NCBI RefSeq assembly: GCF_036507355.1
Contig: NZ_AP027877.1
Direction: 5' to 3' (one strand)
DNA length: 64,000 nucleotides
Source: Escherichia coli
Lineage (GTDB): Bacteria > Pseudomonadota > Gammaproteobacteria > Enterobacterales > Enterobacteriaceae
How positions within the stretch are numbered: the first letter of the stretch is position 1; every line of letters begins with the position of its first letter. This document shows, piece after piece, positions 2,373-59,892 of this stretch. The notes beneath the pieces were generated by a model. It did no database searches. It was not told the DNA's origin and saw nothing but the letters and a program-made list of their open reading frames with translations. Made by a program: the position numbers and the translations under genes.

Positions 2373-3700
2373 GCCAGTTTCAGATCCCGGGTCATGTTTT
2401 CCACGTTGTTTTCGTGGATCACCACGTTGTCTTCGATACGAATGCCGCCGAACGGTTTCAGTGCTTCAATTTTCTGCCAGTTGAAGTGCTTGCTGAACTG
2501 CCCTTCACGCCACGGTGCCAGTAGCGATTCAATGAAGTAGATACCCGGTTCGATGGTTAACACCATGCCCGGCTGGAGAATACGGGTGCAGCGCAGGTAC
2601 GGATATTTTGCCGGTGCCGCGAGGTGCGTACCGCTATCATCCTGCATAAAACCGGCGACGTCATGCACCTGCAGGCCCAGCGGATGGCCGATACCGTGCG
2701 GCATAAACGGTCCGGTGAGATCGTTTTCGACCATCGCTTCTTCACTCATATCGGTGATGATTTGATGTTTACGCAGCAGTTTGGCGATGCGCTGATGGAA
2801 CTGGATGTGGTAATCCACATAGCTAACGCCAGCTTTCATGGTCGCGATCAGCGCCAGTTGTTCATCATTTACGTCTTTCACCAGCTGTGCGTAGTCGTTG
2901 TCGCTTTTTGCCGACCAGGTACGGGTCAGGTCAGCGGCATAGCCGTTATATTCGGCCCCGGCATCCAGCAGGAAGCTGCGCATCTCTTCCGGCGCCTGAT
3001 GATCCAGTTTGGTATAATGCAGCACCGCAGCGTGTTCGTTGAGCGCCACAATGTTGCTGTAAGGTACGTCGGTATCACGATGACCGGTCGCAGTCAGATA
3101 GGCAATATTGATATCGAACTCGCTCATGCCAGAACGGAACGCTTCTTCTGCCGCGCGATGACCGTTGACCGCCATTTTCTGCGCTTCACGCATACAAGCC
3201 AGCTCGTACTCGGTTTTGAAGGAGCGGTAGTAATGCAGGTAGTCGATAACCCCTTTCGGGTTGATATTGCTGGCCTCAATACCCAGTTGCAGCGCACGTT
3301 CCGGCACCGGACCGATATAACCGATATTGCCGCGCGCAGCAGGCAACAGACTACCAATTCCATCGGCTTTCGGCAGCGCGATCACTTCTACATCTTCAGT
3401 CCAGAAGGAGGTCGGCAGCGGTTCGACGTTGTGCCAGTAATCAACCGGCAGATAAAACCACAGTTTCGGCTTGTTCACGCCATCCACCAACAACCAGCAG
3501 TTTGGCACCTGAGTTACCGGCACCCACGCTTTGAATTGCGGGTTCACTTTAAACGGATAGGGATGATCGTCGAGAAAAACATTGAACAGCTCGCCGGAGT
3601 GAATAAGTAACGCATCCAGCTTGAAGCGCGCCAGCGCATCGCGAGTCCGTTCTTGTAAGGTAGCTATATGATTTTTATAGAGCGAGGCCAGTGATTCCAT
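2369..3700 (-). CDS. pepQ: Xaa-Pro dipeptidase PepQ
   Basis: 443-aa ORF with metallopeptidase M24 character ([13 protein letters not shown]); divergent from fadB. Confidence 0.92.
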
Positions 3701-3847
3701 TTTTTACCCTTCTGTTTTTTTGACCTTAAGTCTCCGCATCTTAGCACATCGTTCATCCAGAGCGTGATTTCTGCCGAGCGTGATCAGATCGGCATTTCTT
3801 TAATCTTTTGTTTGCATATTTTTAACACAAAATACACACTTCGACTC

Positions 3848-3864
3848 ATCTGGTACGACCAGAT
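3848..3864. promoter_or_regulatory. FadR operator palindrome in the fadBA promoter
   Basis: ATCTGGTACGACCAGAT perfect palindrome about 25 bp upstream of the fadB ATG. Confidence 0.75.
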
Positions 3865-3889
3865 CACCTTGCGGATTCAGGAGACTGAC

Positions 3890-6079
3890 ATGCTTTACAA
3901 AGGCGACACCCTGTACCTTGACTGGCTGGAAGATGGCATTGCCGAACTGGTATTTGATGCCCCAGGTTCAGTTAATAAACTCGACACTGCGACCGTCGCC
4001 AGCCTCGGCGAGGCCATCGGCGTGCTGGAACAGCAATCAGATCTAAAAGGGCTGCTGCTGCGTTCGAACAAAGCAGCCTTTATCGTCGGTGCTGATATCA
4101 CCGAATTTTTGTCCCTGTTCCTCGTTCCTGAAGAACAGTTAAGTCAGTGGCTGCACTTTGCCAATAGCGTGTTTAATCGCCTGGAAGATCTGCCGGTGCC
4201 GACCATTGCTGCCGTCAATGGCTATGCGCTGGGCGGTGGCTGCGAATGCGTGCTGGCGACCGATTATCGTCTGGCGACGCCGGATCTGCGCATCGGTCTG
4301 CCGGAAACCAAACTGGGCATCATGCCGGGCTTTGGCGGTTCTGTACGTATGCCACGTATGCTGGGCGCTGACAGTGCGCTGGAAATCATTGCCGCCGGTA
4401 AAGATGTCGGCGCGGATCAGGCGCTGAAAATCGGTCTGGTGGATGGCGTAGTCAAAGCAGAAAAACTGATTGAAGGGGCGATGGCGATTTTACGCCAGGC
4501 CATTAACGGCGACCTCGACTGGAAAGCGAAACGTCAGCCGAAGCTGGAACCGCTAAAACTGAGCAAGATTGAAGCCACCATGAGCTTCACCATCGCTAAA
4601 GGGATGGTCGCACAAACGGCGGGGAAACATTATCCGGCCCCCATCACCGCAGTAAAAACCATTGAAGCTGCGGCCCGTTTTGGTCGTGAAGAAGCCCTAA
4701 ACCTGGAAAACAAAAGTTTTGTCCCGCTGGCGCATACCAACGAAGCTCGCGCACTGGTCGGCATATTCCTTAACGATCAATATGTAAAAGGCAAAGCGAA
4801 GAAACTCACCAAAGACGTTGAAACCCCGAAACAGGCCGCTGTGCTGGGCGCAGGCATTATGGGCGGCGGCATCGCTTACCAGTCTGCGTGGAAAGGCGTG
4901 CCGGTTGTCATGAAAGATATCAACGACAAGTCGTTAACCCTCGGCATGACCGAAGCCGCGAAACTGCTGAACAAGCAGCTTGAGCGCGGCAAGATCGATG
5001 GTCTGAAACTGGCTGGCGTGATCTCTACAATCCACCCAACGCTCGACTACGCCGGGTTTGACCGCGTGGATATTGTGGTAGAAGCTGTTGTCGAAAACCC
5101 AAAAGTGAAAAAAGCCGTACTGGCAGAAACCGAGCAGAAAGTACGCCCGGATACCGTGCTGGCGTCTAACACTTCAACCATTCCTATCAGCGAACTGGCC
5201 AACGCGCTGGAACGTCCGGAAAACTTCTGCGGGATGCACTTCTTTAACCCGGTACATCGGATGCCGTTGGTGGAAATTATTCGCGGCGAGAAAAGCTCCG
5301 ACGAAACCATCGCGAAAGTCGTCGCCTGGGCAAGCAAGATGGGCAAAACGCCAATTGTGGTTAACGACTGCCCCGGCTTCTTCGTCAACCGTGTGCTGTT
5401 CCCCTATTTCGCCGGTTTCAGCCAGCTGCTGCGCGACGGCGCGGATTTTCGCAAGATCGACAAAGTGATGGAAAAACAGTTTGGCTGGCCGATGGGTCCG
5501 GCATATCTGCTGGATGTCGTGGGCATTGACACCGCGCATCACGCTCAGGCGGTGATGGCAGCAGGCTTCCCGCAGCGGATGCAGAAAGATTATCGCGATG
5601 CCATCGACGCGCTGTTTGATGCCAACCGCTTTGGTCAGAAGAACGGCCTCGGTTTCTGGCGTTATAAAGAAGACAGCAAAGGTAAGCCGAAGAAAGAAGA
5701 AGACGCCGCTGTTGACGACCTGCTGGCAGAAGTCAATCAGCCGAAGTGCGATTTCAGCGAGGAAGAGATTATCGCCCGCATGATGATCCCGATGGTCAAC
5801 GAAGTGGTGCGCTGTCTGGAAGAGGGCATTATCGCCACTCCGGCAGAAGCGGATATGGCGCTGGTCTACGGCCTGGGCTTCCCTCCGTTCCACGGCGGCG
5901 CGTTCCGCTGGCTGGACACCCTCGGCAGCGCGAAATACCTCGATATGGCACAGCAATATCAGCACCTCGGCCCGCTGTATGAAGTGCCGGAAGGTCTGCG
6001 TAATAAAGCGCGTCATAACGAACCGTACTATCCACCGGTTGAGCCAGCCCGTCCGGTTGGCGACCTGAAAACGGCTTAA
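3890..6079 (+). CDS. fadB: Fatty acid oxidation complex alpha subunit FadB
   Basis: Start [25 protein letters not shown] with GGAG RBS; the ORF-track start at 3764 is an upstream extension running through the FadR operator. Confidence 0.95.
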
Positions 6080-17479: not shown

Positions 17480-18241
17480 TTACAGCAGACGACGCGCCGC
17501 TTCCACCACGATTTTCACCGCTTGGCTTTCAGTTTGTTTCATCGTCTCAGCATTCGGGATCTCTTGCTGGGTGCGGTTAACGATAACACCCGCTACCATA
17601 CCGGCACGCAGGCCCTGACTTGCACACATGGTCAGCAGGGTTGCAGATTCCATTTCATAGTTCATTACGCCCATCGCCTGCCACTCTTCCATAGAACCTT
17701 TAAAGTGACGAACTACGCGACCAGAGTAAGTATCGTAACGTTCCTGACCTGGGTAGAAGGTATCAGAAGAAGCTGTCACGCCAACGTGAGTTGTCGCGCC
17801 AATGGATTTCGCAGCTTCAACCAGCGCAGTCGTACATTCGAAATCAGCGACAGCCGGGAATTCCAGCGGTGCGAAGTGCAGGCTCGCGCCATCCAGACGG
17901 ACAGACGCCGTGGTAACCAGGACATCACCCACATTAATATGCGGCTGAATAGCGCCCGTTGTACCAATACGCAGGAAGGTGCGAATGCCCAGCTGTGCCA
18001 GCTCTTCAACAGCAATAGAGGTAGACGGGCCGCCGATACCGGTAGAGCAGACGATAACAGGTTTACCATCCAGCTCTGCACGCCAGGTAGTGAATTCGCG
18101 GTGAGATGCCAGCTTAACCGGCTTATCCATCAGCGCGGCGATCTTTTCCACACGATCCGGGTCGCCAGGGACGATGGCAAGCGTAGCCCCTTGTAAATCG
18201 TTTTTAGTGAGGCCGAGATGAAAAACATCAGACTTGGACAT
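17480..18241 (-). CDS. udp: Uridine phosphorylase Udp
   Basis: Start placed at [31 protein letters not shown] (253 aa). Confidence 0.95.
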
Positions 18242-19707: not shown

Positions 19708-20856
19708 ATGAGTGATATTATTTACTTGACCATAACCGGAGAACAACAAGGATGTATTTCCTCTCGTTGTGGAACGAGCGCATCAATAGGTAATCGCTGG
19801 CAGATTGGCCATGAAGATGAAATCTTCGCGTTCTCGCTCTCTAATAGTATTACGAATACAGGCAAAGGGTCACAATTGCATGGCCTTAGTTTCTGTAAAT
19901 TGATTGACAAAAGCTCCCCGTTACTTATTAACGCTATTAACAATAACGAGCAGTTGTTCATGGAGTTTGACTTCTATCGGATCAATAGATTTGGTCGATG
20001 GGAGAAATATTACAACATTCAACTCCGCGGCGCGCTCTTATCAGCAATCAATCACCTGTTTACTGAGAACAATCTGGATACAGAAGCCATCACTGTCAGT
20101 TATGAATATATACTCTCCAGGCATCTGATTGCTAATACTGAATTTAGTTATTTGGCATTTCCCGATAACTACAACCGTCTGTTTATACCACGGCCAAAAA
20201 CTAAAGCTGGTAATGGTTTCAAAACACTTAACAGTAAAGCGGTTGGCAGACTGCTTGCTGCTGGTGGCATATACAATGGGAATATCGAAGGATTCAGGGA
20301 AACAGCAGACAAGTTGGGGGGAGATGCACCTGCTGGTTACGATCAATTTATGGATAACAAAGGGTTACTCATCGCTGGTGCTTCAATAGTTGCTGGAGCA
20401 GTTCTGGGGAGAATGAGACTCCCTGATTTGGAATCACTTGAGCATTTCGGAGCCAGAGGAGCAGTATCAGGAAGACCATTTAATCCCGACCTTGCCGGTG
20501 GTCCAATAGAAAATCTGACGACAGATGGCATAACAATCAACAGGGAAGGTATCGCTATTGTTGAAAAACACATAGCCAGATTTGGTCATGACCCTGTAAA
20601 TGAAGTGATGATCAATAGACTGAAAGACATTGAGAAAGGAAAAATCCCCCCAGAACAAGTAGATCTTAACTTCTATACTCATGAGTGTCGGGAATATCAG
20701 CGTTACTGTAATCTTGGTTGGGAAACAGGACAACCTGATGGTGACGCAGGCTATGCACTCTGGAATCATACGCATACTGCTACTCTAGAAGATTATAAAC
20801 TTAAGGGAGAACTTAATGACTTATACCACCAGGATGCACTTGACTATGATAACTGA
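19708..20856 (+). CDS. Hcp-fold protein with ~210-aa C-terminal extension (candidate 'evolved Hcp' type VI secretion effector); C-terminal domain unassigned
   Basis: N-terminal ~165 aa carry Hcp signature blocks (KLIDKSSPLL; FDFYRINRFG) aligning to KEIDSSSPYL and FKWYRIN of canonical Hcp; AAGGA RBS; gene visibly AT-rich; not in the K-12 ysgA-metE interval. Confidence 0.72.
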   Translation: MSDIIYLTITGEQQGCISSRCGTSASIGNRWQIGHEDEIFAFSLSNSITNTGKGSQLHGLSFCKLIDKSSPLLINAINNNEQLFMEFDFYRINRFGRWEKYYNIQLRGALLSAINHLFTENNLDTEAITVSYEYILSRHLIANTEFSYLAFPDNYNRLFIPRPKTKAGNGFKTLNSKAVGRLLAAGGIYNGNIEGFRETADKLGGDAPAGYDQFMDNKGLLIAGASIVAGAVLGRMRLPDLESLEHFGARGAVSGRPFNPDLAGGPIENLTTDGITINREGIAIVEKHIARFGHDPVNEVMINRLKDIEKGKIPPEQVDLNFYTHECREYQRYCNLGWETGQPDGDAGYALWNHTHTATLEDYKLKGELNDLYHQDALDYDN

Positions 20857-21091
20857 AACTGAAATTATCGTACTGAAAGTTATGGCTGAGAAAGATATAA
20901 ACTGGAACTGGATGAATCTCGATCGCACACTATCCATAAGGCAAATTCCAGGATTCGGTAATGTTGTTAACATTGTTAACAAATTAGCTAACGAGGGTTT
21001 GGTTATTATTGAGGATAGCGGACATAAGTCTATGCCTCACTACCACGTTACTGAAAAGGGATACAATTTCGTGAAAAGTGAGAATAAATAA
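20816..21091 (+). CDS. Small protein immediately downstream of the Hcp-extension gene; candidate cognate immunity protein (possible internal start at 20846)
   Basis: The ATG at 20846 overlaps the upstream stop in an ATGA arrangement; 81-91 aa; same strand; AT-rich. Confidence 0.5.
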   Translation: MTYTTRMHLTMITETEIIVLKVMAEKDINWNWMNLDRTLSIRQIPGFGNVVNIVNKLANEGLVIIEDSGHKSMPHYHVTEKGYNFVKSENK

Positions 21092-33435: not shown

Positions 33436-33813
33436 TTGCATGAGAGTGGGCATATTGCCATGCTGACAGGAGACTCACACAAGGATGTAAAATTTATGTT
33501 ACGTATGTTTATCCCAACATCTAACGGTAAGATTTCCAGACGCCGTTATATATTTTCATTTATTTTAATAAACTTCATTTTTGCCTTTCTTATTATCTTT
33601 TTTAACGATGGAGAAGCAGGTTTTCTTGTTATAGTCTCTACCATCTTACTCCATTATCTCGTCATCAATCTGAATTGCCAACGACTCCGTGATAGTGGTT
33701 TCGTCTATATAAAAACTTATGTTTTTGGTACATTAGCAGTATATATCATCTCTATCATCACAATGATAGCCGAAGATTTTGCCTGTTCAGGCAATGGTTC
33801 GATGATTTTTTAA
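33436..33813 (+). CDS. yigG: Small inner membrane protein YigG
   Basis: 125-aa ORF with two hydrophobic helices; position after rarD; AT-rich. Confidence 0.6.
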
Positions 33814-33888: not shown

Positions 33889-34269
33889 ATGAGTAAGGAA
33901 TATATGAACGATGGTTCATTAAGTGAAAAATGGAAATACCGATTTAATTTTTATGATCAACATGGTTTTCCTGGATTCTGGGGGGCAACACCAGAATATA
34001 AAGCAGCATTTAAAGCATTAAAAGTAAGACAACGCTTAACTATTCAAATGAATTTCATTGCTTTCTTCTGTTCCTAGATATATTTATTTGTCCTGGGGTT
34101 ATGGAAAAAAGCAATTATAGTTCTATTACTTGGTATTCTATCTCTATTTGTTGGTGCACTAATTGGCGTTAACATTCTGGGTATTGCCGTAGCAGCCTAT
34201 GTTGCTGTTAACACGAACAAATGGTTCTATGAGAAAGAAGTAAAAGGGTTAAATACCTGGAGCCTTTGA
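33889..34269 (+). pseudogene. yigF: yigF (DUF2628-type small membrane protein) interrupted by an in-frame amber codon at 34075-34077
   Basis: MSKEYMNDGSLSEKWKYRFNFYDQHGFPGFWG... stops at TAG after 62 codons, then the same frame stays open for 63 more protein-like hydrophobic codons to TGA at 34267-34269. Confidence 0.6.
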
Positions 34270-34309: not shown

Positions 34310-34445
34310 TTACAACCAGTTCTTGCGCTTAAAGTACAGATACGGTGCCAGGCCCGCGAGGATCATAAAGATAATCGCGCCTGGGTAGCCGAAACTCCAC
34401 TTCAGTTCTGGCATAAACTCAAAGTTCATGCCATAGCTGGAGGCA
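34310..34445 (-). repeat. Orphan near-identical copy of the corA 3' end (direct repeat of 36017-36150)
   Basis: Encodes ...[43 protein letters not shown], the CorA C-terminus including the GMN motif; only a few mismatches to the intact corA 3' end. Confidence 0.85.
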
Positions 34446-34637
34446 ATCCGCGTAGGAAAAAGTTTCCTAATCGGTAAATTCAACATATTGTTATTAACAA
34501 TGGGCAAAACCAATCAATAACGAGATTCCCTTCGGAATGTAATAAAAATGTGAAGTGTACTTCTTTTTTAAAATTTTTTATCCTAGCATTTGTTCTCAAA
34601 TTGATATTGAGCTTAAATATAACCAAGGAAAATGTAA

Positions 34638-35345
34638 ATGAATAACACATTACTTCCATCAATTAATATTCCCTGTACACTTTTCGAAACTATTAGTTTA
34701 TTTGATGATTATTCTGCTGATGATATGCAATATGGTGATATGGTAGAACAAGATTTTCTCTCACTCGGCCTAAGCGATATCTCAGCAAAAGTTGATCCTT
34801 ACAGACTTATTAAATACCATTTCCCTGGCCCAGGTTCTGTTAATGTTGTTTTTAGTGCCTCAAGTTCCGGAACAAAAATATCACAACGTGAATGCACTGA
34901 TATTTTATTTGCAGAAATGAAAGAACTAGCAAAAAATTTTTCCTTTTTTGGACAATATAAAACACTTATCGAAGATCTGATTGAACATTTTAGATATGGA
35001 AATGGCAGCAATTTTCATAGCCAACAATTAAATTTATCTTTTCATGAAAAGATAAATAAATATGGTTATAATAGTCCAATACGAATAATCAAAGAATGTA
35101 TCGAAAATGGCATTAATTCAACTCCCTCGACAGGATACCAACCTCTTATCCTGCAAAGCATTAAAACCAAATTACTTTCATCAAGACTAAATAAATTTAA
35201 TGACTTCGAGGACAGTTTTAATGGCTTAGGAATCAGTATTCATGATATTTCAGCTCAAAAAAATATCTCTTTTAAGCTTTCAAAAATACGCTATAGGGTG
35301 GAGTGCGACAATTCATTTTGTAGCACAGGACCACTTCGGTCTTGA
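34638..35345 (+). CDS. Hypothetical protein in the AT-rich corA-adjacent insert; probably frameshifted (alternative frame continues to 35487)
   Basis: 235-aa ORF with no match recalled; AT-rich; an A7 tract at 35260-35266 lies where a second frame opens and runs to a TGA overlapping the next gene start. Confidence 0.45.
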   Translation: MNNTLLPSINIPCTLFETISLFDDYSADDMQYGDMVEQDFLSLGLSDISAKVDPYRLIKYHFPGPGSVNVVFSASSSGTKISQRECTDILFAEMKELAKNFSFFGQYKTLIEDLIEHFRYGNGSNFHSQQLNLSFHEKINKYGYNSPIRIIKECIENGINSTPSTGYQPLILQSIKTKLLSSRLNKFNDFEDSFNGLGISIHDISAQKNISFKLSKIRYRVECDNSFCSTGPLRS

Positions 35346-35483
35346 TGTAACTGATATCAAAAACAAGACTTACAGCAAATATAGATTTTTTCGCATATGG
35401 TTCTTTTTACAACGGCATAAAGGCTTTGCTTTCAAACCTTTTTTCACCAATTTTAACACTATCGAAAGAATCGAAAATTATCT

Positions 35484-35975
35484 ATGAAAAGCAAACGCCA
35501 GAAAATTATATTATGTTTATTTCTTCTATGCTGTATCTATAATTTATGGACATTGCGTCCTGTACAGATTTTGTATACATACTCTGATGCTGGCAATTCA
35601 GTCTTTCTGGTCGTTGATCATCTGCCATGGACTGACAGCGATAAAATAAATTGGTATCTGAAGCATCAGAATGAAATTAAAAATCAACATCCCCTACCAG
35701 AAGGTAGTTGGCATACCTGGTATGTCATTGATATCGGTAATGGCTTCACTGACTATAAAAAATATATCGAAGGGCCGTATGAAGATCTCTACTGTTTCCC
35801 GACAATTAAGAGCAATGATAATTGCATCGTGAAAAATTACTTAATGGTTATTAATGAATACCCTTATCGTAACACTCATATTGGTATTAACGATTTTACT
35901 GAGTATCAATTAACACAAGAAAATAAAATAGAGCGAGTTTTCAATCCGCATGACTTTAAAAAAGACAATTTTTAG
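35484..35975 (+). CDS. Hypothetical small membrane-anchored protein (N-terminal signal/TM segment), second gene of the insert
   Basis: 163-aa ORF MKSKRQKIILCLFLLCCIYNLW...; Trp/Tyr-rich; AT-rich; followed by a GCCGGATAAA...TTTATCCGGC hairpin. Confidence 0.5.
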   Translation: MKSKRQKIILCLFLLCCIYNLWTLRPVQILYTYSDAGNSVFLVVDHLPWTDSDKINWYLKHQNEIKNQHPLPEGSWHTWYVIDIGNGFTDYKKYIEGPYEDLYCFPTIKSNDNCIVKNYLMVINEYPYRNTHIGINDFTEYQLTQENKIERVFNPHDFKKDNF

Positions 35976-36016
35976 AAATAAGCCGGATAAAAAAATAGCT
36001 TTATCCGGCACTCATA

Positions 36017-36967
36017 TTACAACCAGTTCTTCCGCTTAAAGTACAGATACGGTGCCAGGCCCGCGAGGATCATAAAGATAATCGCGCCTGGGTAGCCGAA
36101 ACTCCACTTCAGTTCTGGCATAAACTCAAAGTTCATCCCGTAGCTGGAAGCAACCAGCGTTGGCGGCAGGAACACGACGGATACCACCGAGAAAATTTTG
36201 ATGATGCGGTTCTGCTCGATGTTGATAAAACCCATTGCCGCCTGCATCAGGAAGTTCACCTTCTGGAACAGGGATTCGTTATGCGGCAGCAGGGATTCGA
36301 TATCTCGCAGGATTTCACGCGCCTGCTCCAGTTGCCCACCCGGTAAGCGTGCTTTACGTACCAGGAAGTTGAGAGCGCGCTGGGTATCCATCAGACACAG
36401 GCGAACTTTCCAGCCGATATCTTCCAGTTCCGCCAGAGTGGAGAGCGCCTCGTCGTACTCATCGCCCTGATGCCCTTCCATAATCACCCGGCTCAATTGC
36501 TCCAGGTCGCTATAGATATTTTCAATTTCATCTGCCAACTGTTCGATTTTGGTTTCGAACAAATCCAGCAGCAACTCGTAGGCGTTACCGTCTACCATCG
36601 ACTGGCTACGGGCACGCATACGATATAGACGAAAAGCGGGCAGTTCACGCTCACGCAGAGTAAACAGACGACCATCACGGATGGTAAATGCCACAGTGGA
36701 GTTACCGGCGTGATCTTCCGCATCTTCAAAGAAGAAGAAGGAGTGAATATGCAGGCCGTCATCGTCTTCAAAGAAACGTGCCGATGCTTCGATGTCTTCC
36801 AGTTCCGGGCGGGTTGCCAGGCTCTGGCCAAGTTCAGATTGTACGCGCAGTCGCTCGTCGTCGTCCGGTTCGACAAGATCAATCCATACTGCATTTACAA
36901 GGGGTTGTGACTCTTCGACTTCCAGCCGGGTCAGTCGGTTATTTTCCAGTTGAAATGCGCTCAGCAT
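36017..36967 (-). CDS. corA: Magnesium/cobalt transport protein CorA
   Basis: Start placed at [31 protein letters not shown] (316 aa); GMN motif and C-terminal TM helices. Confidence 0.95.
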
Positions 36968-37336
36968 GACCGGGACTCCCAATGCTTAAAATATCGGACA
37001 GTTCGGTGGGCACACAGAAACAAATTGGGTTTCAGACCATTAAACAGCCTGACTCAGCGCGACGGGAAAAATTGAGGTCGCTGACAACCGCTAAGGCTAT
37101 CAGCAAAAAGGGATAGCCTTAGGAGTTGATCCTGGATGACAGGATAGTGAGCCAGTATCTACTGGGTGTGTCCAAGGCGAATGTCCTCTTAGAGTGATCG
37201 TGCGCGCATGTTACGCCAGCAAAATTTTGCCGTCAACACGCAACAGAACACCACAGAACAATAGTTGAACTTCGCGCTTTTTGGTACTCGTCAAGGTCGC
37301 TAACAGGATAAAAAAATCCCACATCCAGGACCTATA

Positions 37337-44754: not shown

Positions 44755-44942
44755 TATGGATTGCCTGTAAAGTTCATCGCTTTCTGCTTTCTATCATCGC
44801 AGGAGAAGGCGTAAAAGCAAGCGTTTAGCGACTCTTTATGAAGTCTGAAAAGTGAGGAAATGCTGCGAGTATAACGCTTACTCGTGGGGATTTATGTTTT
44901 GCTGGTAGTTTCGTGATCGGCACCTCGCGCCAGGATGGCTTT

Positions 44943-46421
44943 ATGCACTATCGCAATGTGGTTTGTTTGTTGGCTTGTTCGTTGTTTTTATCGTCGGCAT
45001 GGGGATGTCGGCTTTCCGCACCTGAACATAATATTTACCAGAAACAGGGAAAAGGCGTGGTGTACCTGCGCCCTTATAAAGAAACAAATCTTTCTCTACC
45101 TGACGTGAATTACAAGAGTTTGCGTCGGTTACCCAATTTATTAATAGACCCGACAACACTAGACGAATGGGATAAAGAACCGCCTCAGACTGATTTGACA
45201 ACCGACTACCTCTATGAGGGCGCACAGGCCTGGTATCCTCATTATTCCTGGTATAGCGATGGTCGCAATATCCTCTACGCGGGTGAAGTTGTGCAAAACC
45301 CTCCCGGCACACCTCCCGTCGATGTCGCCTCGTTCAAGGCATGGGGTGATTTTGCTGCAGATAAACACAGTCTCTATTTTGAAGGCAAGCGCACCGATGA
45401 CAATGGTGGGAGAAATAGCTTAGATATCAAAACGCTGCATCAGGTGGAATTCCGGCCTCCCTGGGCTCCTGACTTACTGGGGCTGATATTACGTGACGCT
45501 AATTTCTTGTATATCAATGGGCATCGCCTCGCTGACCCCGAGAGTTTCCGTGTGCTGGCGCAGAAGTCCTGGGATCAGCGAGGAAAGTTTTCCACCACGT
45601 TTAACCCCTGCGTTGCCGTACCATTCGGCCCCTGGGATACCCTGGCTCGTACACGGACCAAAATCCTGATCAACGGCGAACAGCTTGATGCCGACCCGGA
45701 CACCTTTTCCGTCGTGCGCTGGATGCCCGGCTCACTCTTGACCTGGCGTGATAAAAACGGGCTACAGCGTAAAGTCCTCGACAAGGAAAATCTGGCGTGG
45801 GATGAGGATTTAACAAAGCACTGTCTGGATTTTTCTCTGCTGGAAAAGAAAGTGTTCTGGCGTCAGGGGCCTGACTGTAAACAGGAAGAATTACCGGGAC
45901 TCGATCCGGAACAGTTTCACCCCATCAGTGATGCTGTCGCACAGTATCAGGACTCGCTTTATACCATCATCGAAACAGAGTCTGGTGACCGCAAGCTGGA
46001 GATCGTGAAACTTGATGATCCCAATCTTATTATCAACAAACGTTTCAACGCCGGGAAACGCCACGGCTATTTACTTACGCGTGCCGAAGGGTGGCCATAC
46101 CATTCCGGTTTACACGTGTTTGAATCTGACGGACCGCTGATCTTACTGGATAACCGCTCTCCGGATGAACGCGAAGCCCATCTTAATGACCATCCCTTTT
46201 TGCGCAGATGGTATGCCCGCGATAACCGCTACGTTTACAGCTTTGATGGCGCGCAGCTCTGGCGATACCGCACCGCGGATCCGAAACAAGTTCGCTTAAT
46301 CTGGAAGGAACAACATTCGGGATATGGCTACGGGGTAAATTACAAAACGGGATATCTGGACGGAAAAATTACCGATGACGGCGAATTTATTCCTGCCCCG
46401 CGCAATGAGGCGACAAAATGA
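44943..46421 (+). CDS. Secreted repeat protein, paralog 1 (DKNYY-like repeats); alternative GTG start at 44913
   Basis: ATG at 44943 with AGGA RBS gives signal-like N-terminus MHYRNVVCLLACSLFLSSAWGC; repeated D-x-x-x-(L/V)Y-(F/Y)-x-G ... ADP-x-(S/T)F motifs; not in my recollection of the K-12 yifL-cyaY interval. Confidence 0.6.
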   Translation: MHYRNVVCLLACSLFLSSAWGCRLSAPEHNIYQKQGKGVVYLRPYKETNLSLPDVNYKSLRRLPNLLIDPTTLDEWDKEPPQTDLTTDYLYEGAQAWYPHYSWYSDGRNILYAGEVVQNPPGTPPVDVASFKAWGDFAADKHSLYFEGKRTDDNGGRNSLDIKTLHQVEFRPPWAPDLLGLILRDANFLYINGHRLADPESFRVLAQKSWDQRGKFSTTFNPCVAVPFGPWDTLARTRTKILINGEQLDADPDTFSVVRWMPGSLLTWRDKNGLQRKVLDKENLAWDEDLTKHCLDFSLLEKKVFWRQGPDCKQEELPGLDPEQFHPISDAVAQYQDSLYTIIETESGDRKLEIVKLDDPNLIINKRFNAGKRHGYLLTRAEGWPYHSGLHVFESDGPLILLDNRSPDEREAHLNDHPFLRRWYARDNRYVYSFDGAQLWRYRTADPKQVRLIWKEQHSGYGYGVNYKTGYLDGKITDDGEFIPAPRNEATK

Positions 46422-47743
46422 ATGGTCAAATAATCACTGTTGCACTCATCCTGTTGGGGCACATATTTCTGACGCCTGCTGTACAGGCCATAGGGTTCGA
46501 CTATTACAATGATCACGGTGTTATGTCTTACGGTAAAGGTTATGGGGAGGATGAGAAAATCATTGCCCAATTTCCGAAGATGAACAGAGCCGATTTGCGC
46601 CTTGTGACAAATATATCCGGGGAGCGGGAGTTAGTGGAAGGCTATATACCCACCGATGAAATAAGCATAAAAAATGAGGAATACCACTGGGTGACAGACG
46701 GCCGCGTTATTCTCTGGCGTGGCAAAATCGTTAGCAATCCACCGGGAACACCCACTGTCGATATTGCCAGCTTTCAGGCTATGGGCCGCTTCGCGGTCGA
46801 TAAATATAGCCTCTATTTTGATGGACAGCGCACCGAAAGTAATAGCGGCGCGTCACGTGTTGATCTGGCGACACTAAAAGCTATCGAAGGTAACTCTACC
46901 ACGCTGGTGGATAGTAAAAATCTCTATTTGTCCGGTCGACGTCAGGGGAGCAGCAGTAATGTTACTGTATTAGAAAAAAGATGGTGGGGTATTAATCCAC
47001 GTCTTATGAGTGTAAACAGAAATTTGTATTCCAATGATCTGCTTATCCGCAGTGGGCAGAATATTTATTTAAATGCCGTTCACCTTACAGCGAATGCAGA
47101 CTCATTTGAGATAATTCGCTGGATATCTCATTCACTGCTGGTTTTTCGCGACAATAAGGGTCTGCATCGTTATCCCTTTGGGCAATTGTCTGGCAAAGCG
47201 ATACCCGTAGATGATGACGTCTCTTTTGAAGTAGGGGAAAGTCGCGTTCGCTGGCGTAAACAGCTCACGCCCGACCGTCAGTGGAGCAAGTGGATAGACC
47301 TACCAGGTATTGAACCTGAACAATTTCATCTGATTACTGGCAATATTGCGCAATATAAAGATCGGTTGTATGTAACAAAATTATCGACATTTGGTGAAGA
47401 CCAGCTTGAGATAATCCCGCTGGATACGCCAGACCTGGTCATTGATCACTCATTTAATAGCGGCAAACAGCATGCTTATTTTATCCGCCAATTACGGTCA
47501 AAGAGCGTGCAAATTATTCCAGTTAACGGTCCGCTAACTAAAAACGATCGCTTCGCTTATGACGATCGCAATGTTTATACATGGACCGATACAGAGGTAA
47601 GGATTACACCCTCCCCCTGCCCGGCGAAAACACGCGTCAGAGAAGAGAATGTGCGCGAACTTCACAACAGAGACATTATTATTCCGTTGACGGATGAATC
47701 ATGCCGTAACGCAGCCGCAGAGGTGCAAACTTTGAAGCCCTGA
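46418..47743 (+). CDS. Secreted repeat protein, paralog 2 (DKNYY-like repeats), translationally coupled to paralog 1
   Basis: ATGA start/stop overlap; signal peptide MNGQIITVALILLGHIFLTPAVQA; shares blocks with paralog 1 (NPPGTP(P/T)VD(V/I)ASF; (D/E)PEQFH; LEI(V/I)(K/P)LD). Confidence 0.6.
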   Translation: MNGQIITVALILLGHIFLTPAVQAIGFDYYNDHGVMSYGKGYGEDEKIIAQFPKMNRADLRLVTNISGERELVEGYIPTDEISIKNEEYHWVTDGRVILWRGKIVSNPPGTPTVDIASFQAMGRFAVDKYSLYFDGQRTESNSGASRVDLATLKAIEGNSTTLVDSKNLYLSGRRQGSSSNVTVLEKRWWGINPRLMSVNRNLYSNDLLIRSGQNIYLNAVHLTANADSFEIIRWISHSLLVFRDNKGLHRYPFGQLSGKAIPVDDDVSFEVGESRVRWRKQLTPDRQWSKWIDLPGIEPEQFHLITGNIAQYKDRLYVTKLSTFGEDQLEIIPLDTPDLVIDHSFNSGKQHAYFIRQLRSKSVQIIPVNGPLTKNDRFAYDDRNVYTWTDTEVRITPSPCPAKTRVREENVRELHNRDIIIPLTDESCRNAAAEVQTLKP

Positions 47744-52783: not shown

Positions 52784-53977
52784 ATGACGGAACAAGAAAA
52801 AACCTCCGCCGTGGTTGAAGAGACCAGGGAGGCCGTGGACACCACGTCACAACCTGTCGCAACAGAAAAAAAGAGTAAGAACAATACCGCATTGATTCTC
52901 AGCGCGGTGGCTATCGCTATTGCTCTGGCGGCGGGCGTCGGTTTGTATGGCTGGGGTAAACAACAGGCCGTCAATCAGACCGCCACCAGCGATGCCCTGG
53001 CTAACCAACTGACGGCATTGCAAAAAGCCCAGGAGAGCCAAAAAGCCGAGCTGGAAGGCATTATTAAGCAACAAGCTGCACAGCTTAAGCAGGCGAATCG
53101 TCAGCAAGAAACGCTGGCAAAACAGTTGGATGAAGTCCAACAAAAGGTCGCCACCATTTCCGGCAGCGATGCTAAAACCTGGCTGCTGGCTCAGGCCGAT
53201 TTTCTGGTGAAACTCGCCGGACGGAAGCTGTGGAGCGATCAGGACGTCACGACCGCTGCAGCGTTGCTGAAAAGTGCAGACGCCAGCCTGGCGGATATGA
53301 ATGACCCAAGTCTGATTACCGTTCGTCGGGCAATTACCGATGATATCGCCAGCCTTTCTGCAGTATCGCAGGTGGATTATGACGGCATCATCCTTAAGCT
53401 TAATCAGCTTTCAAATCAGGTAGATAACCTGCGTCTGGCCGATAATGACAGCGATGGTTCGCCGATGGATTCCGACGGTGAAGAGCTTTCCAGTTCCATC
53501 AGCGAATGGCGTATCAATCTGCAAAAAAGCTGGCAGAACTTTATGGACAACTTCATTACGATTCGCCGTCGTGATGACACCGCCGTACCGCTGTTAGCGC
53601 CAAATCAGGATATCTATCTGCGCGAAAATATTCGCTCTCGCCTGCTGGTCGCAGCACAAGCTGTACCGCGTCACCAGCAAGAGACTTATCGCCAGGCGCT
53701 GGAGAACGTCTCCACCTGGGTACGTGCTTACTACGATACTGATGATGCCACCACCAAAGCGTTCCTCGACGAGGTGGACCAGTTAAGCCAGCAAAATATC
53801 TCGATGGATCTTCCGGAAACCCTGCAAAGCCAGGCGATGCTGGAAAAACTGATGCAGACTCGCGTGCGTAACCTGCTGGCACAACCGGCAGCGGGGACAA
53901 CGGAAGCTAAACCTGCACCTGCACCGCAAGCTGCACCGCAAGCTGATACTCCGGCAGCCGCGCCGCAAGGAGAATAA
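52784..53977 (+). CDS. hemX: HemX membrane protein
   Basis: 397-aa ORF with TM segment and Gln/Ala-rich coiled coil; Pro/Ala-rich C-terminus. Confidence 0.9.
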
Positions 53978-58822: not shown

Positions 58823-59892
58823 GCTGAATTTACAATCCAAGTGCAACAAAAAAAGAAGTACTCATCAACTAGAATATAATTTTGTTTCCACACAAAAACC
58901 ACTTCCAAATGATGAGTACTTCCTACCGACATCTTACAATAAACGAGCGAGAAAAGATAATGATTTTACTCGCACAGGGCAAAAAACAAGCAGAAATTGC
59001 CAAAGCACTGGGACGTAGCTCCAGCACCATTTCTCGCGAGCTGAAACGACACGCTCTAGAAAGCTACAGTGCAACGAACGCACAAAACAGCTATTTGAAG
59101 CATCGTCAAAATAGCAAAGCACAGCGCAAATTAGAGCAGCCTGAATATTTCAATTTGGTGCAAGAAAAGTTTCTGACAGAAAACTGGTCGCCCGAACAAA
59201 TCAGCGCACGATTAAAATTGGAAAAATCTGAATTATCCATTAGTTATTCAACCATTTATCGTGGTATTTATTCAGGGTTGTTTGATATAGGCGAACGCAA
59301 AGCCAGTCGCAAACTGCGCCACAAAGGCAAAACACGGCATACAAAAAATCATCATGAAAAACGTGGCAAAATTCAGATATCCAACCATTTGAACGACCGT
59401 CCCATTTCGGCGCAAAATCGCAGTCGCTTTGGACATTGGGAAGCCGATACCGTACTGGGTAAAGCGGGTGGAGCTTGTTTGCTGACGCTGACGGAACGCA
59501 AAAGTCGTTTTGAGTTGGTGAAGAAAATTCCTGCCAAAAAAGCCGAAGCAGTCCAAAAAGCCATGATTGAATTGCTGGATTCACATATATTGCGGTCAAT
59601 TACGCCAGACCGTGGTAAAGAATTTGCCCAACATCGTTTGGTAACAGAAGCACTGGGTGTAGAATTTTACTTCCCCGAGCCGCATCAACCGTGGACACGG
59701 GGAACGAATGAAAATACAAATGGGTTACTTCGTGAATACTTTCCGAAGCACCAAGACATCAATCAGTGGAGCGAAGTTGATATTCAACAGGTGATCAATA
59801 AACTGAATTTACGACCACGTAAATGTTTAGGTTGGAAAACACCTTATGAAGTTTACTTCAAAAAATCGTTGCACTTGGTTTGACAATTCAAG
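58823..59892 (+). mobile_element. IS30-family insertion sequence, 1070 bp, ISApl1-like by size and 2-bp target duplication
   Basis: Imperfect terminal inverted repeats (left TGAATTTACAATCCAAGTGCAAC; right revcomp TGAATTGTCAAACCAAGTGCAAC); flanked by AG at 58821-58822 and 59893-59894; removing the element plus one AG restores aslB ...CDYCFYLEKQSLY... Confidence 0.85.
58909..59883 (+). CDS. IS30-family DDE transposase
   Basis: MMSTSYRHLTINEREKIMILLAQGKKQAEIAKALGRSSSTISRELKRH (HTH) ... GHWEADTV ... PWTRGTNENTNGLLREYFPK, typical of IS30-family transposases. Confidence 0.88.
   Translation: MMSTSYRHLTINEREKIMILLAQGKKQAEIAKALGRSSSTISRELKRHALESYSATNAQNSYLKHRQNSKAQRKLEQPEYFNLVQEKFLTENWSPEQISARLKLEKSELSISYSTIYRGIYSGLFDIGERKASRKLRHKGKTRHTKNHHEKRGKIQISNHLNDRPISAQNRSRFGHWEADTVLGKAGGACLLTLTERKSRFELVKKIPAKKAEAVQKAMIELLDSHILRSITPDRGKEFAQHRLVTEALGVEFYFPEPHQPWTRGTNENTNGLLREYFPKHQDINQWSEVDIQQVINKLNLRPRKCLGWKTPYEVYFKKSLHLV

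Follow-up and report, generated by a model that had tools for sequence, protein, structure and literature searches.

A DUF3289-family gene split at an A7 tract upstream of an intact DUF943 gene in one Escherichia coli assembly

The closest described counterparts of the locus analysed here are effector-immunity pairs of the T6SS. T6EC1 of Yersinia pseudotuberculosis carries a DUF3289 domain in a PAAR fusion, is toxic in the periplasm of E. coli, where it causes cell rounding, and is neutralised by a neighbouring DUF943 protein that is membrane-anchored and faces the periplasm (Geller et al. 2024, PMC11148199). The same study proposed homology to colicin M via PaeM (4G76) and the targeting of periplasmic cell-wall precursors. 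In Aeromonas jandaei, an orphan DUF3289 protein is a T6SS-delivered antibacterial effector with a downstream immunity gene (PMC12135965), and a Klebsiella survey recovered the same DUF3289-DUF943 linkage.

The pair described here lies in the window, the whole 64,000-nt stretch of E. coli DNA that was analysed. It resembles T6EC1/T6IC1 in that both domains are full-length, the effector gene precedes the immunity gene and the immunity protein has an N-terminal membrane anchor, and the predicted fold of the E. coli protein matches 9jdi_A and, weakly, PaeM. It differs in having no PAAR fusion, in forming an orphan cassette adjoining corA rather than part of a T6SS operon, and in the frameshift that its effector gene carries here; T6SS delivery and toxicity have been shown for homologs and are predicted for the E. 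coli pair. The Aeromonas jandaei pair shares the orphan, stand-alone DUF3289 effector and the small membrane immunity gene downstream, but its immunity protein has 95 aa and three transmembrane helices and is not called DUF943 in PMC12135965, and its effector is intact. For colicin M and PaeM, a catalytic fold in common with the family and a common periplasmic targeting have been proposed in the literature. Colicin M and PaeM are lipid II-degrading bacteriocins, whereas an enzymatic activity of DUF3289 proteins is only putative, and the window protein has neither the translocation nor the receptor-binding domain of a colicin.

One gene in two reading frames

The initial annotation had described a 235-aa ORF (ORF1), a second frame open for 81 codons and a stop codon of that frame overlapping the start of a 163-aa gene; all of these are present in the ORF list and in the letters themselves (Table 1). 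The second frame is +1 relative to ORF1, so that the split is explicable by a one-base insertion or a two-base deletion. By chance, a frame would stay open for 81 codons with P ~0.002 at the base composition of the gene (32% GC), and homology argues far more strongly than this figure for a single split gene. ORF1 matches TIGR03034 (YPO3983 family) over profile positions 1-215 of 274 with E=7e-89, its 297.9 bits exceeding the curated cut-off of 156.45 bits without help from the second frame, and the 81-aa frame matches positions 201-274 with E=8e-36. Since both match the profile in succession, the two ORFs are consecutive pieces of one protein.

Table 1. Features of the split gene, its partner and the flanking corA sequences, in window coordinates
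Feature	Position	Strand	Remarks
corA 3'-end remnant, left edge of insert	34310-34453	-	direct repeat of 36017-36160, 138/144 identical (~96%)
ORF1 as it stands	34638-35345	+	235 aa; 207 native codons, then 28 out-of-frame codons and TGA (35343-35345)
Predicted effector gene, whole	34638-35487	+	850 nt here vs 849 nt intact; +1 A insertion
+1 frame, 81 codons	35242-35487	+	native C-terminal 75 residues from codon 8 (ISLLSFQKY...)
A7 homopolymer, frameshift site	35257-35263	+	alignment vs intact homologs and clone-mates
ATGA, effector stop/DUF943 start overlap	35484-35487	+	translational-coupling arrangement; annotated likewise in intact strains
DUF943 gene, 163 aa, N-terminal hydrophobic anchor, intact	35484-35975	+	PF06092 match; immunity role from PMC11148199
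GC-rich palindromic hairpin, terminator-like, between convergent DUF943 and corA genes	35982-36009		consensus scan only
corA, intact, right flank of insert	36017-36982	-	ORF list and annotated relatives

Deletion of one A yields a 282-aa protein that matches PF11692 (DUF3289) over positions 2-270 of 272 (E=2.8e-84) and differs from the O145 protein at four residues, none of them downstream of the tract. A single 849-nt ORF whose stop overlaps the DUF943 start is found in E. coli O145 RM9872, O157:H7 ECP19-2498, EC7072022 (EC707) and BL21, and these four homologous sequences align to the window without gaps except for A6 in place of A7. An ancestral ORF of about 282 codons, coupled to the downstream gene, had been proposed from the window by itself, and the uninterrupted ORF with its ATGA in the homologous cassettes of intact strains bears this out. 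A native end of the family at 235 aa was also looked for. Instead, homologs in Salmonella, Enterobacter, Trabulsiella and Lelliottia have 278-283 aa and align end to end at 55-65% identity.

The frames join at the A7 homopolymer, which is A6 in the intact homologs and in the clone-mates described below. The initial annotation had put an A7 run at this join, as the homolog alignments, gapless except for one A, confirm, and had placed it at 35260-35266, 3 nt away from its real position. Alignment with homologs shows that ORF1 departs from the native frame after ...HDISAQK. The intact tract is read as CAA AAA ATA (Gln-Lys-Ile); in the window, 28 unrelated residues (NISFKLSKIRYRVECDNSFCSTGPLRS) are appended to the 207 native ones, and the 75 codons 3' of A7 are without any further damage.

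The part of the protein that is separated in this way is the C-terminal core of the family, AQDHFGLD...FRFFRIWFFLQRH.DFAFKPFFTNF, which includes FRFFRIWFFLQ and is near-invariant in the homolog alignment. In the window this core sits in the +1 frame after A7, so that no single ORF of about 280 aa contains it, and such an ORF is regained only after one A is removed. When the family sequence profile was compared with the PDB, 9jdi_A was matched only over query positions 180-272 (E=8.5e-6), and the region of the 81-codon frame is the sole part with sequence similarity to this solved DUF3289 protein. Because 9jdi_A is matched only there, the stretch straddling and following residue 207 is where the family is most conserved, with similarity reaching as far as Bacteroides. 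The window copy is a pseudogene of the DUF3289/YPO3983 family, or a mis-called copy. GenBank lists its two products, BED24473.1 and BED24474.1, as separate 'hypothetical proteins', where a single entry is called for: a frameshifted DUF3289 effector pseudogene or, should the extra A be an error, an intact gene.

Predicted function and setting of the cassette

An AlphaFold2 model of the E. coli protein, built on a 26-sequence alignment, has a mean pLDDT of 76.5 and a pTM of 0.74. The top match in a Foldseek search of the PDB was 9jdi_A (E=1.4e-10, prob 1.00), from a B. fragilis T6SS effector-immunity complex, which the depositors named 'DUF3289 family protein'; a search under the names BtpeA, BtapC and BtpiA found no paper describing the activity of 9jdi. 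The fold of a solved DUF3289 effector is thus recovered with 9jdi_A by both the model and the profile, and the second Foldseek match, the colicin-M-like PaeM (4g76), is weak (E=0.09, TM 0.26). Directly downstream of the effector ORF, and overlapping it by ATGA, lies the cognate immunity gene of the pair. Its 163-aa product matches PF06092 (DUF943) over positions 1-150 of 151 (E=4e-27), and the identical protein is present on at least 17 contigs. By analogy with the published pairs, the split gene is predicted to encode a small, colicin-M-like T6SS effector acting in the periplasm, and the next gene its DUF943 immunity protein. BL21, the host of the published DUF3289 toxicity and DUF943 rescue assays, has an intact chromosomal pair of its own (BL21-Gold(DE3), NC_012947.1, 2887-4223). 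Its native immunity evidently gives no protection against the Yersinia toxin, which implies immunity specificity.

The order of the locus is rarD - yigG - yigF - corA 3' remnant - DUF3289 - DUF943 - corA. The insert, of about 1.7 kb, is AT-rich (GC 32%, vs 51% for the window), and the equivalents of the corA remnant in other strains are annotated by PGAP as a partial CorA pseudogene. A 1.45-kb cassette, annotated 'YPO3983/DUF3289 family protein | DUF943 family protein', is present in 2,757 of 5,426 complete E. coli genomes, or about half. The pair forms a small cassette that was gained by horizontal transfer and integrated at the 3' end of corA.

The window contains no core cluster of a T6SS. 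An Hcp/TssD-family gene lies 15 kb upstream of the cassette at 19708-20856 (+); its product matches TIGR03344 at positions 1-147 and PF05638 at residues 6-135 and is extended at its C-terminus by about 235 aa that match no Pfam family. A small overlapping ORF follows at 20816-21091, and together the two resemble an orphan fusion of Hcp and a toxin, accompanied by its immunity gene. At this site BL21 carries another island, of about 8 kb. On the strength of the Hcp-family gene with its extension, the strain carries other orphan T6SS cargo, and the same gene hints that the strain may use a T6SS.

Origin of the extra A

The length of the tract was surveyed in complete genomes with queries of 95-121 nt spanning it, which were read via identity bands and alignment spans. 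No complete genome matched the 121-nt segment of the window at 99% or above. This allele group comprises about 1,800 complete genomes, of which XYEH3934 alone was found to have A7, in a gene already disrupted at another site. Among about 15 billion proteins, the 235-aa and 81-aa products are confined to a single contig, and the repaired 282-aa protein is found verbatim on at least five other contigs.

Clone-mates of the isolate were reached via the exact DUF943 protein, the repaired effector, the Hcp-extension protein and a neighbouring ORF. GCA_016660925.1, GCA_047852605.1 and GCA_021425525.1 match the window exactly over 3.4-5.5 kb, the extra A aside, and GCA_905398585.1 differs by the extra A and one SNP; all these assemblies carry A6 and the intact 282-aa ORF. 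Because clone-mates that otherwise match have A6, the break is private to this assembly. Over window positions 9708-57743 (48,036 nt), the comparison with GCA_016660925.1 yielded three substitutions and the single A indel. The substitutions, at 18200 (udp K14N), 28509 (no codon placed) and 50641 (cyaA R19, synonymous), are private with respect to all clone-mates examined, corresponding to a private divergence of about 6e-5 per bp. In the same 48 kb, 56 of 57 homopolymers of at least 6 nt have the same length as in GCA_016660925.1, as do 183 of 184 runs of at least 5 nt. All 31 homopolymers in core coding sequences have the length found in BL21, and the three other runs that do differ lie between genes or in yigG. 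Two of these, one in yigG and one upstream of the effector gene, fall within the loci compared with the clone-mates and are shared with them, which makes them real lineage traits.

The proposal that slippage in the A tract split the gene agrees with these comparisons, in which one A is the sole indel relative to homologs and the repaired protein recurs verbatim in clone-mates. We favour a real and very recent slippage mutation over a base-calling error, with a probability of roughly 0.6, because homopolymer errors are not widespread in the assembly and private changes have accumulated in the isolate. Replication slippage in this isolate would have taken the tract from A6 to A7. Translation would then keep to the native frame up to residue 207, continue through 28 unrelated codons and terminate at 35343-35345, and the product would be without the C-terminal 75 residues, the most conserved block of the family. 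The 235-aa product is very probably inert and non-toxic, because this conserved block is lost. Since clone-mates with otherwise identical sequence over tens of kb lack it, the event would be very recent.

The extra A could instead be a homopolymer error of the consensus, the isolate itself having A6 and an unbroken effector gene; this possibility we take seriously and still rather doubt. The same clone is represented by at least four independent assemblies with A6, otherwise essentially identical across 3.4-20.8 kb, the frameshifted products are confined to one contig, and a single-base homopolymer difference in one assembly is the classic type of long-read error. The downstream frame has no secondary decay, which would be expected of an error and fits a very recent event equally. 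However, no other homopolymer of at least 6 nt (56 in number) differs across 48 kb, a result with which one isolated error is still compatible, all but one of the runs of at least 5 nt agree with a short-read clone-mate, and no core gene in the window is frameshifted. The three private substitutions in the same 48 kb show that real private changes exist. In nanopore data, homopolymer errors are more commonly deletions than insertions, which also counts against an artefact.

A functional role of the tract was also weighed, in two forms. The initial annotation had raised programmed frameshifting, in which A7 would be a designed site of +1 ribosomal frameshifting or transcriptional slippage, so that a full-length protein is made alongside the short one. 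If tRNA-Lys slipped by +1 on AAA-AAA-A, or if the mRNA lost one A, the native ...AQKISLL... would indeed be restored, and the next 82 nt have a better predicted fold than shuffled sequences (z=-3.0). However, the A7 tract and the two-frame layout are not conserved: intact relatives, clone-mates included, have A6 and one ORF, and the only other A7 among the roughly 1,800 complete genomes is that of XYEH3934, in a gene already broken. In the 0 frame the slip site is followed by AAT, a codon that is neither a stop nor rare, the first hairpin begins 26 nt downstream, a distance probably too great for a classical stimulator, and no Rfam element was matched. We consider such a programme barely credible; read-through of A7 is conceivable as incidental leakiness, if it occurs at all. 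A -1 frameshift on A_AAA_AAT was ruled out as well, the -1 frame meeting TAA within five codons.

A reversible contingency locus, at which A6 and A7 alternate to toggle the toxin while immunity is kept, would account for the fact that A6 became A7 at least twice, on the different allele backgrounds of the window and XYEH3934, and that a second homopolymer of the gene (T6) is also altered in other strains. Against this, the tract is short, A7 occurs in about 1 in 1,800 complete genomes with no appreciable polymorphism of tract length, the clone-mates (at least four assemblies) uniformly have A6, and the A7 of XYEH3934 stands in a gene already dead and looks like neutral decay. Phase variation is therefore very improbable. 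A broader version holds that A6 and T6, about 120 nt apart, are hot spots at which an orphan T6SS toxin is reversibly silenced with immunity kept, generating 'immune non-producer' variants in E. coli clones, with a low level of full-length toxin made from A7 by transcriptional or +1 ribosomal slippage; this we offer as a long shot.

Immunity gene, other disrupted alleles and neighbouring differences

The DUF943 ORF is whole. With the effector frame broken, ribosomes stop 138 nt before its ATG, so that the ATGA stop/start coupling to the effector gene is lost, which may affect expression of the immunity gene. A promoter scan gave fewer sigma-70-like sites than shuffles did (5 vs 7.9) and hence no grounds for claiming an internal immunity promoter. 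If the extra A is real, the isolate would be immune to one colicin-M-like T6SS toxin without producing it, a state that is common and to be expected as effector-immunity modules turn over. Comparison with clone-mates allows a break of this sort to be dated as recent and private.

Other strains have disrupted alleles of the same gene at the same locus. XYEH3934 (NZ_CP110978.1, 924-1772) has the identical change from A6 to A7 and, about 120 nt downstream, a change from T6 to T5; FDAARGOS_1277 (3080-3927) has only the T6 to T5 change, in common with XYEH3934, and PGAP flags both genes as 'frameshifted'. As in the window, homopolymer frameshifts have broken these genes while DUF943 is intact downstream; they differ in that T6 to T5, with or without A7, lies on another allele background, whereas the window allele has A7 only. 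The pattern in these two strains suggests stepwise homopolymer decay of a gene already dead. The A7 and T5 of XYEH3934 were also considered as a compensated double frameshift, which was ruled out, since the TGA (35343-35345) precedes the T tract.

Further disruptions comprise IS1 insertions in the gene (H38 and H78), in-frame deletions of 35 aa and a form ending early at ...DHFD. Sporadic loss of the toxin with immunity kept is a recurrent background process at this locus. The case adds nothing new in kind, the DUF3289/DUF943 class being published and frameshifted alleles being already annotated in RefSeq; its practical yield is a corrected annotation. The initial annotation had likened the locus to a decaying toxin/immunity module. 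Its kind was correctly recognised, DUF3289 and DUF943 being a published T6SS pair; 'decaying' was an overstatement, the break being private to one assembly and the clone-mates intact. The window holds an ordinary recent pseudogene or a sequencing error, and 'just broken, or mis-called' fits better than 'decaying module'.

Several features elsewhere in the window were recorded in passing. Two adjacent RNA hairpins are predicted at 35290-35344 (+), within the part of the gene that codes for the conserved C-terminal block (MFE -23 kcal/mol, z=-3.0 vs shuffles). In yigF (33889-34077), a SNP at 34076 changes TGG to TGA (W63*) and leaves 62 aa vs 126; the 62-aa product is widespread (295 index blocks), including in strains without the insert. 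In the 3' part of yigG (33806-33811), T6 for the T7 of BL21 shifts the end of the gene, a difference common to the clone-mates, and the yigG of BL21 has an internal stop. The interval between aslB and the tRNA-Pro/Leu/His/Arg cluster holds an IS30-family transposase ORF (58882-59883, +; NF033563, E=3e-92), which is not found at the corresponding site of BL21. Between lptM and cyaY are two long overlapping ORFs (44913-46421 and 46418-47743, both +) of 502 and 441 aa with no NCBIfam match; in related genomes a 'DKNYY family protein' is annotated in this interval, and BL21 has only a fragment there. At 53926-53931, hemX has a net in-frame length difference of 12 nt relative to BL21 in a short GC-rich repeat (CTGCACCGCAAG...).
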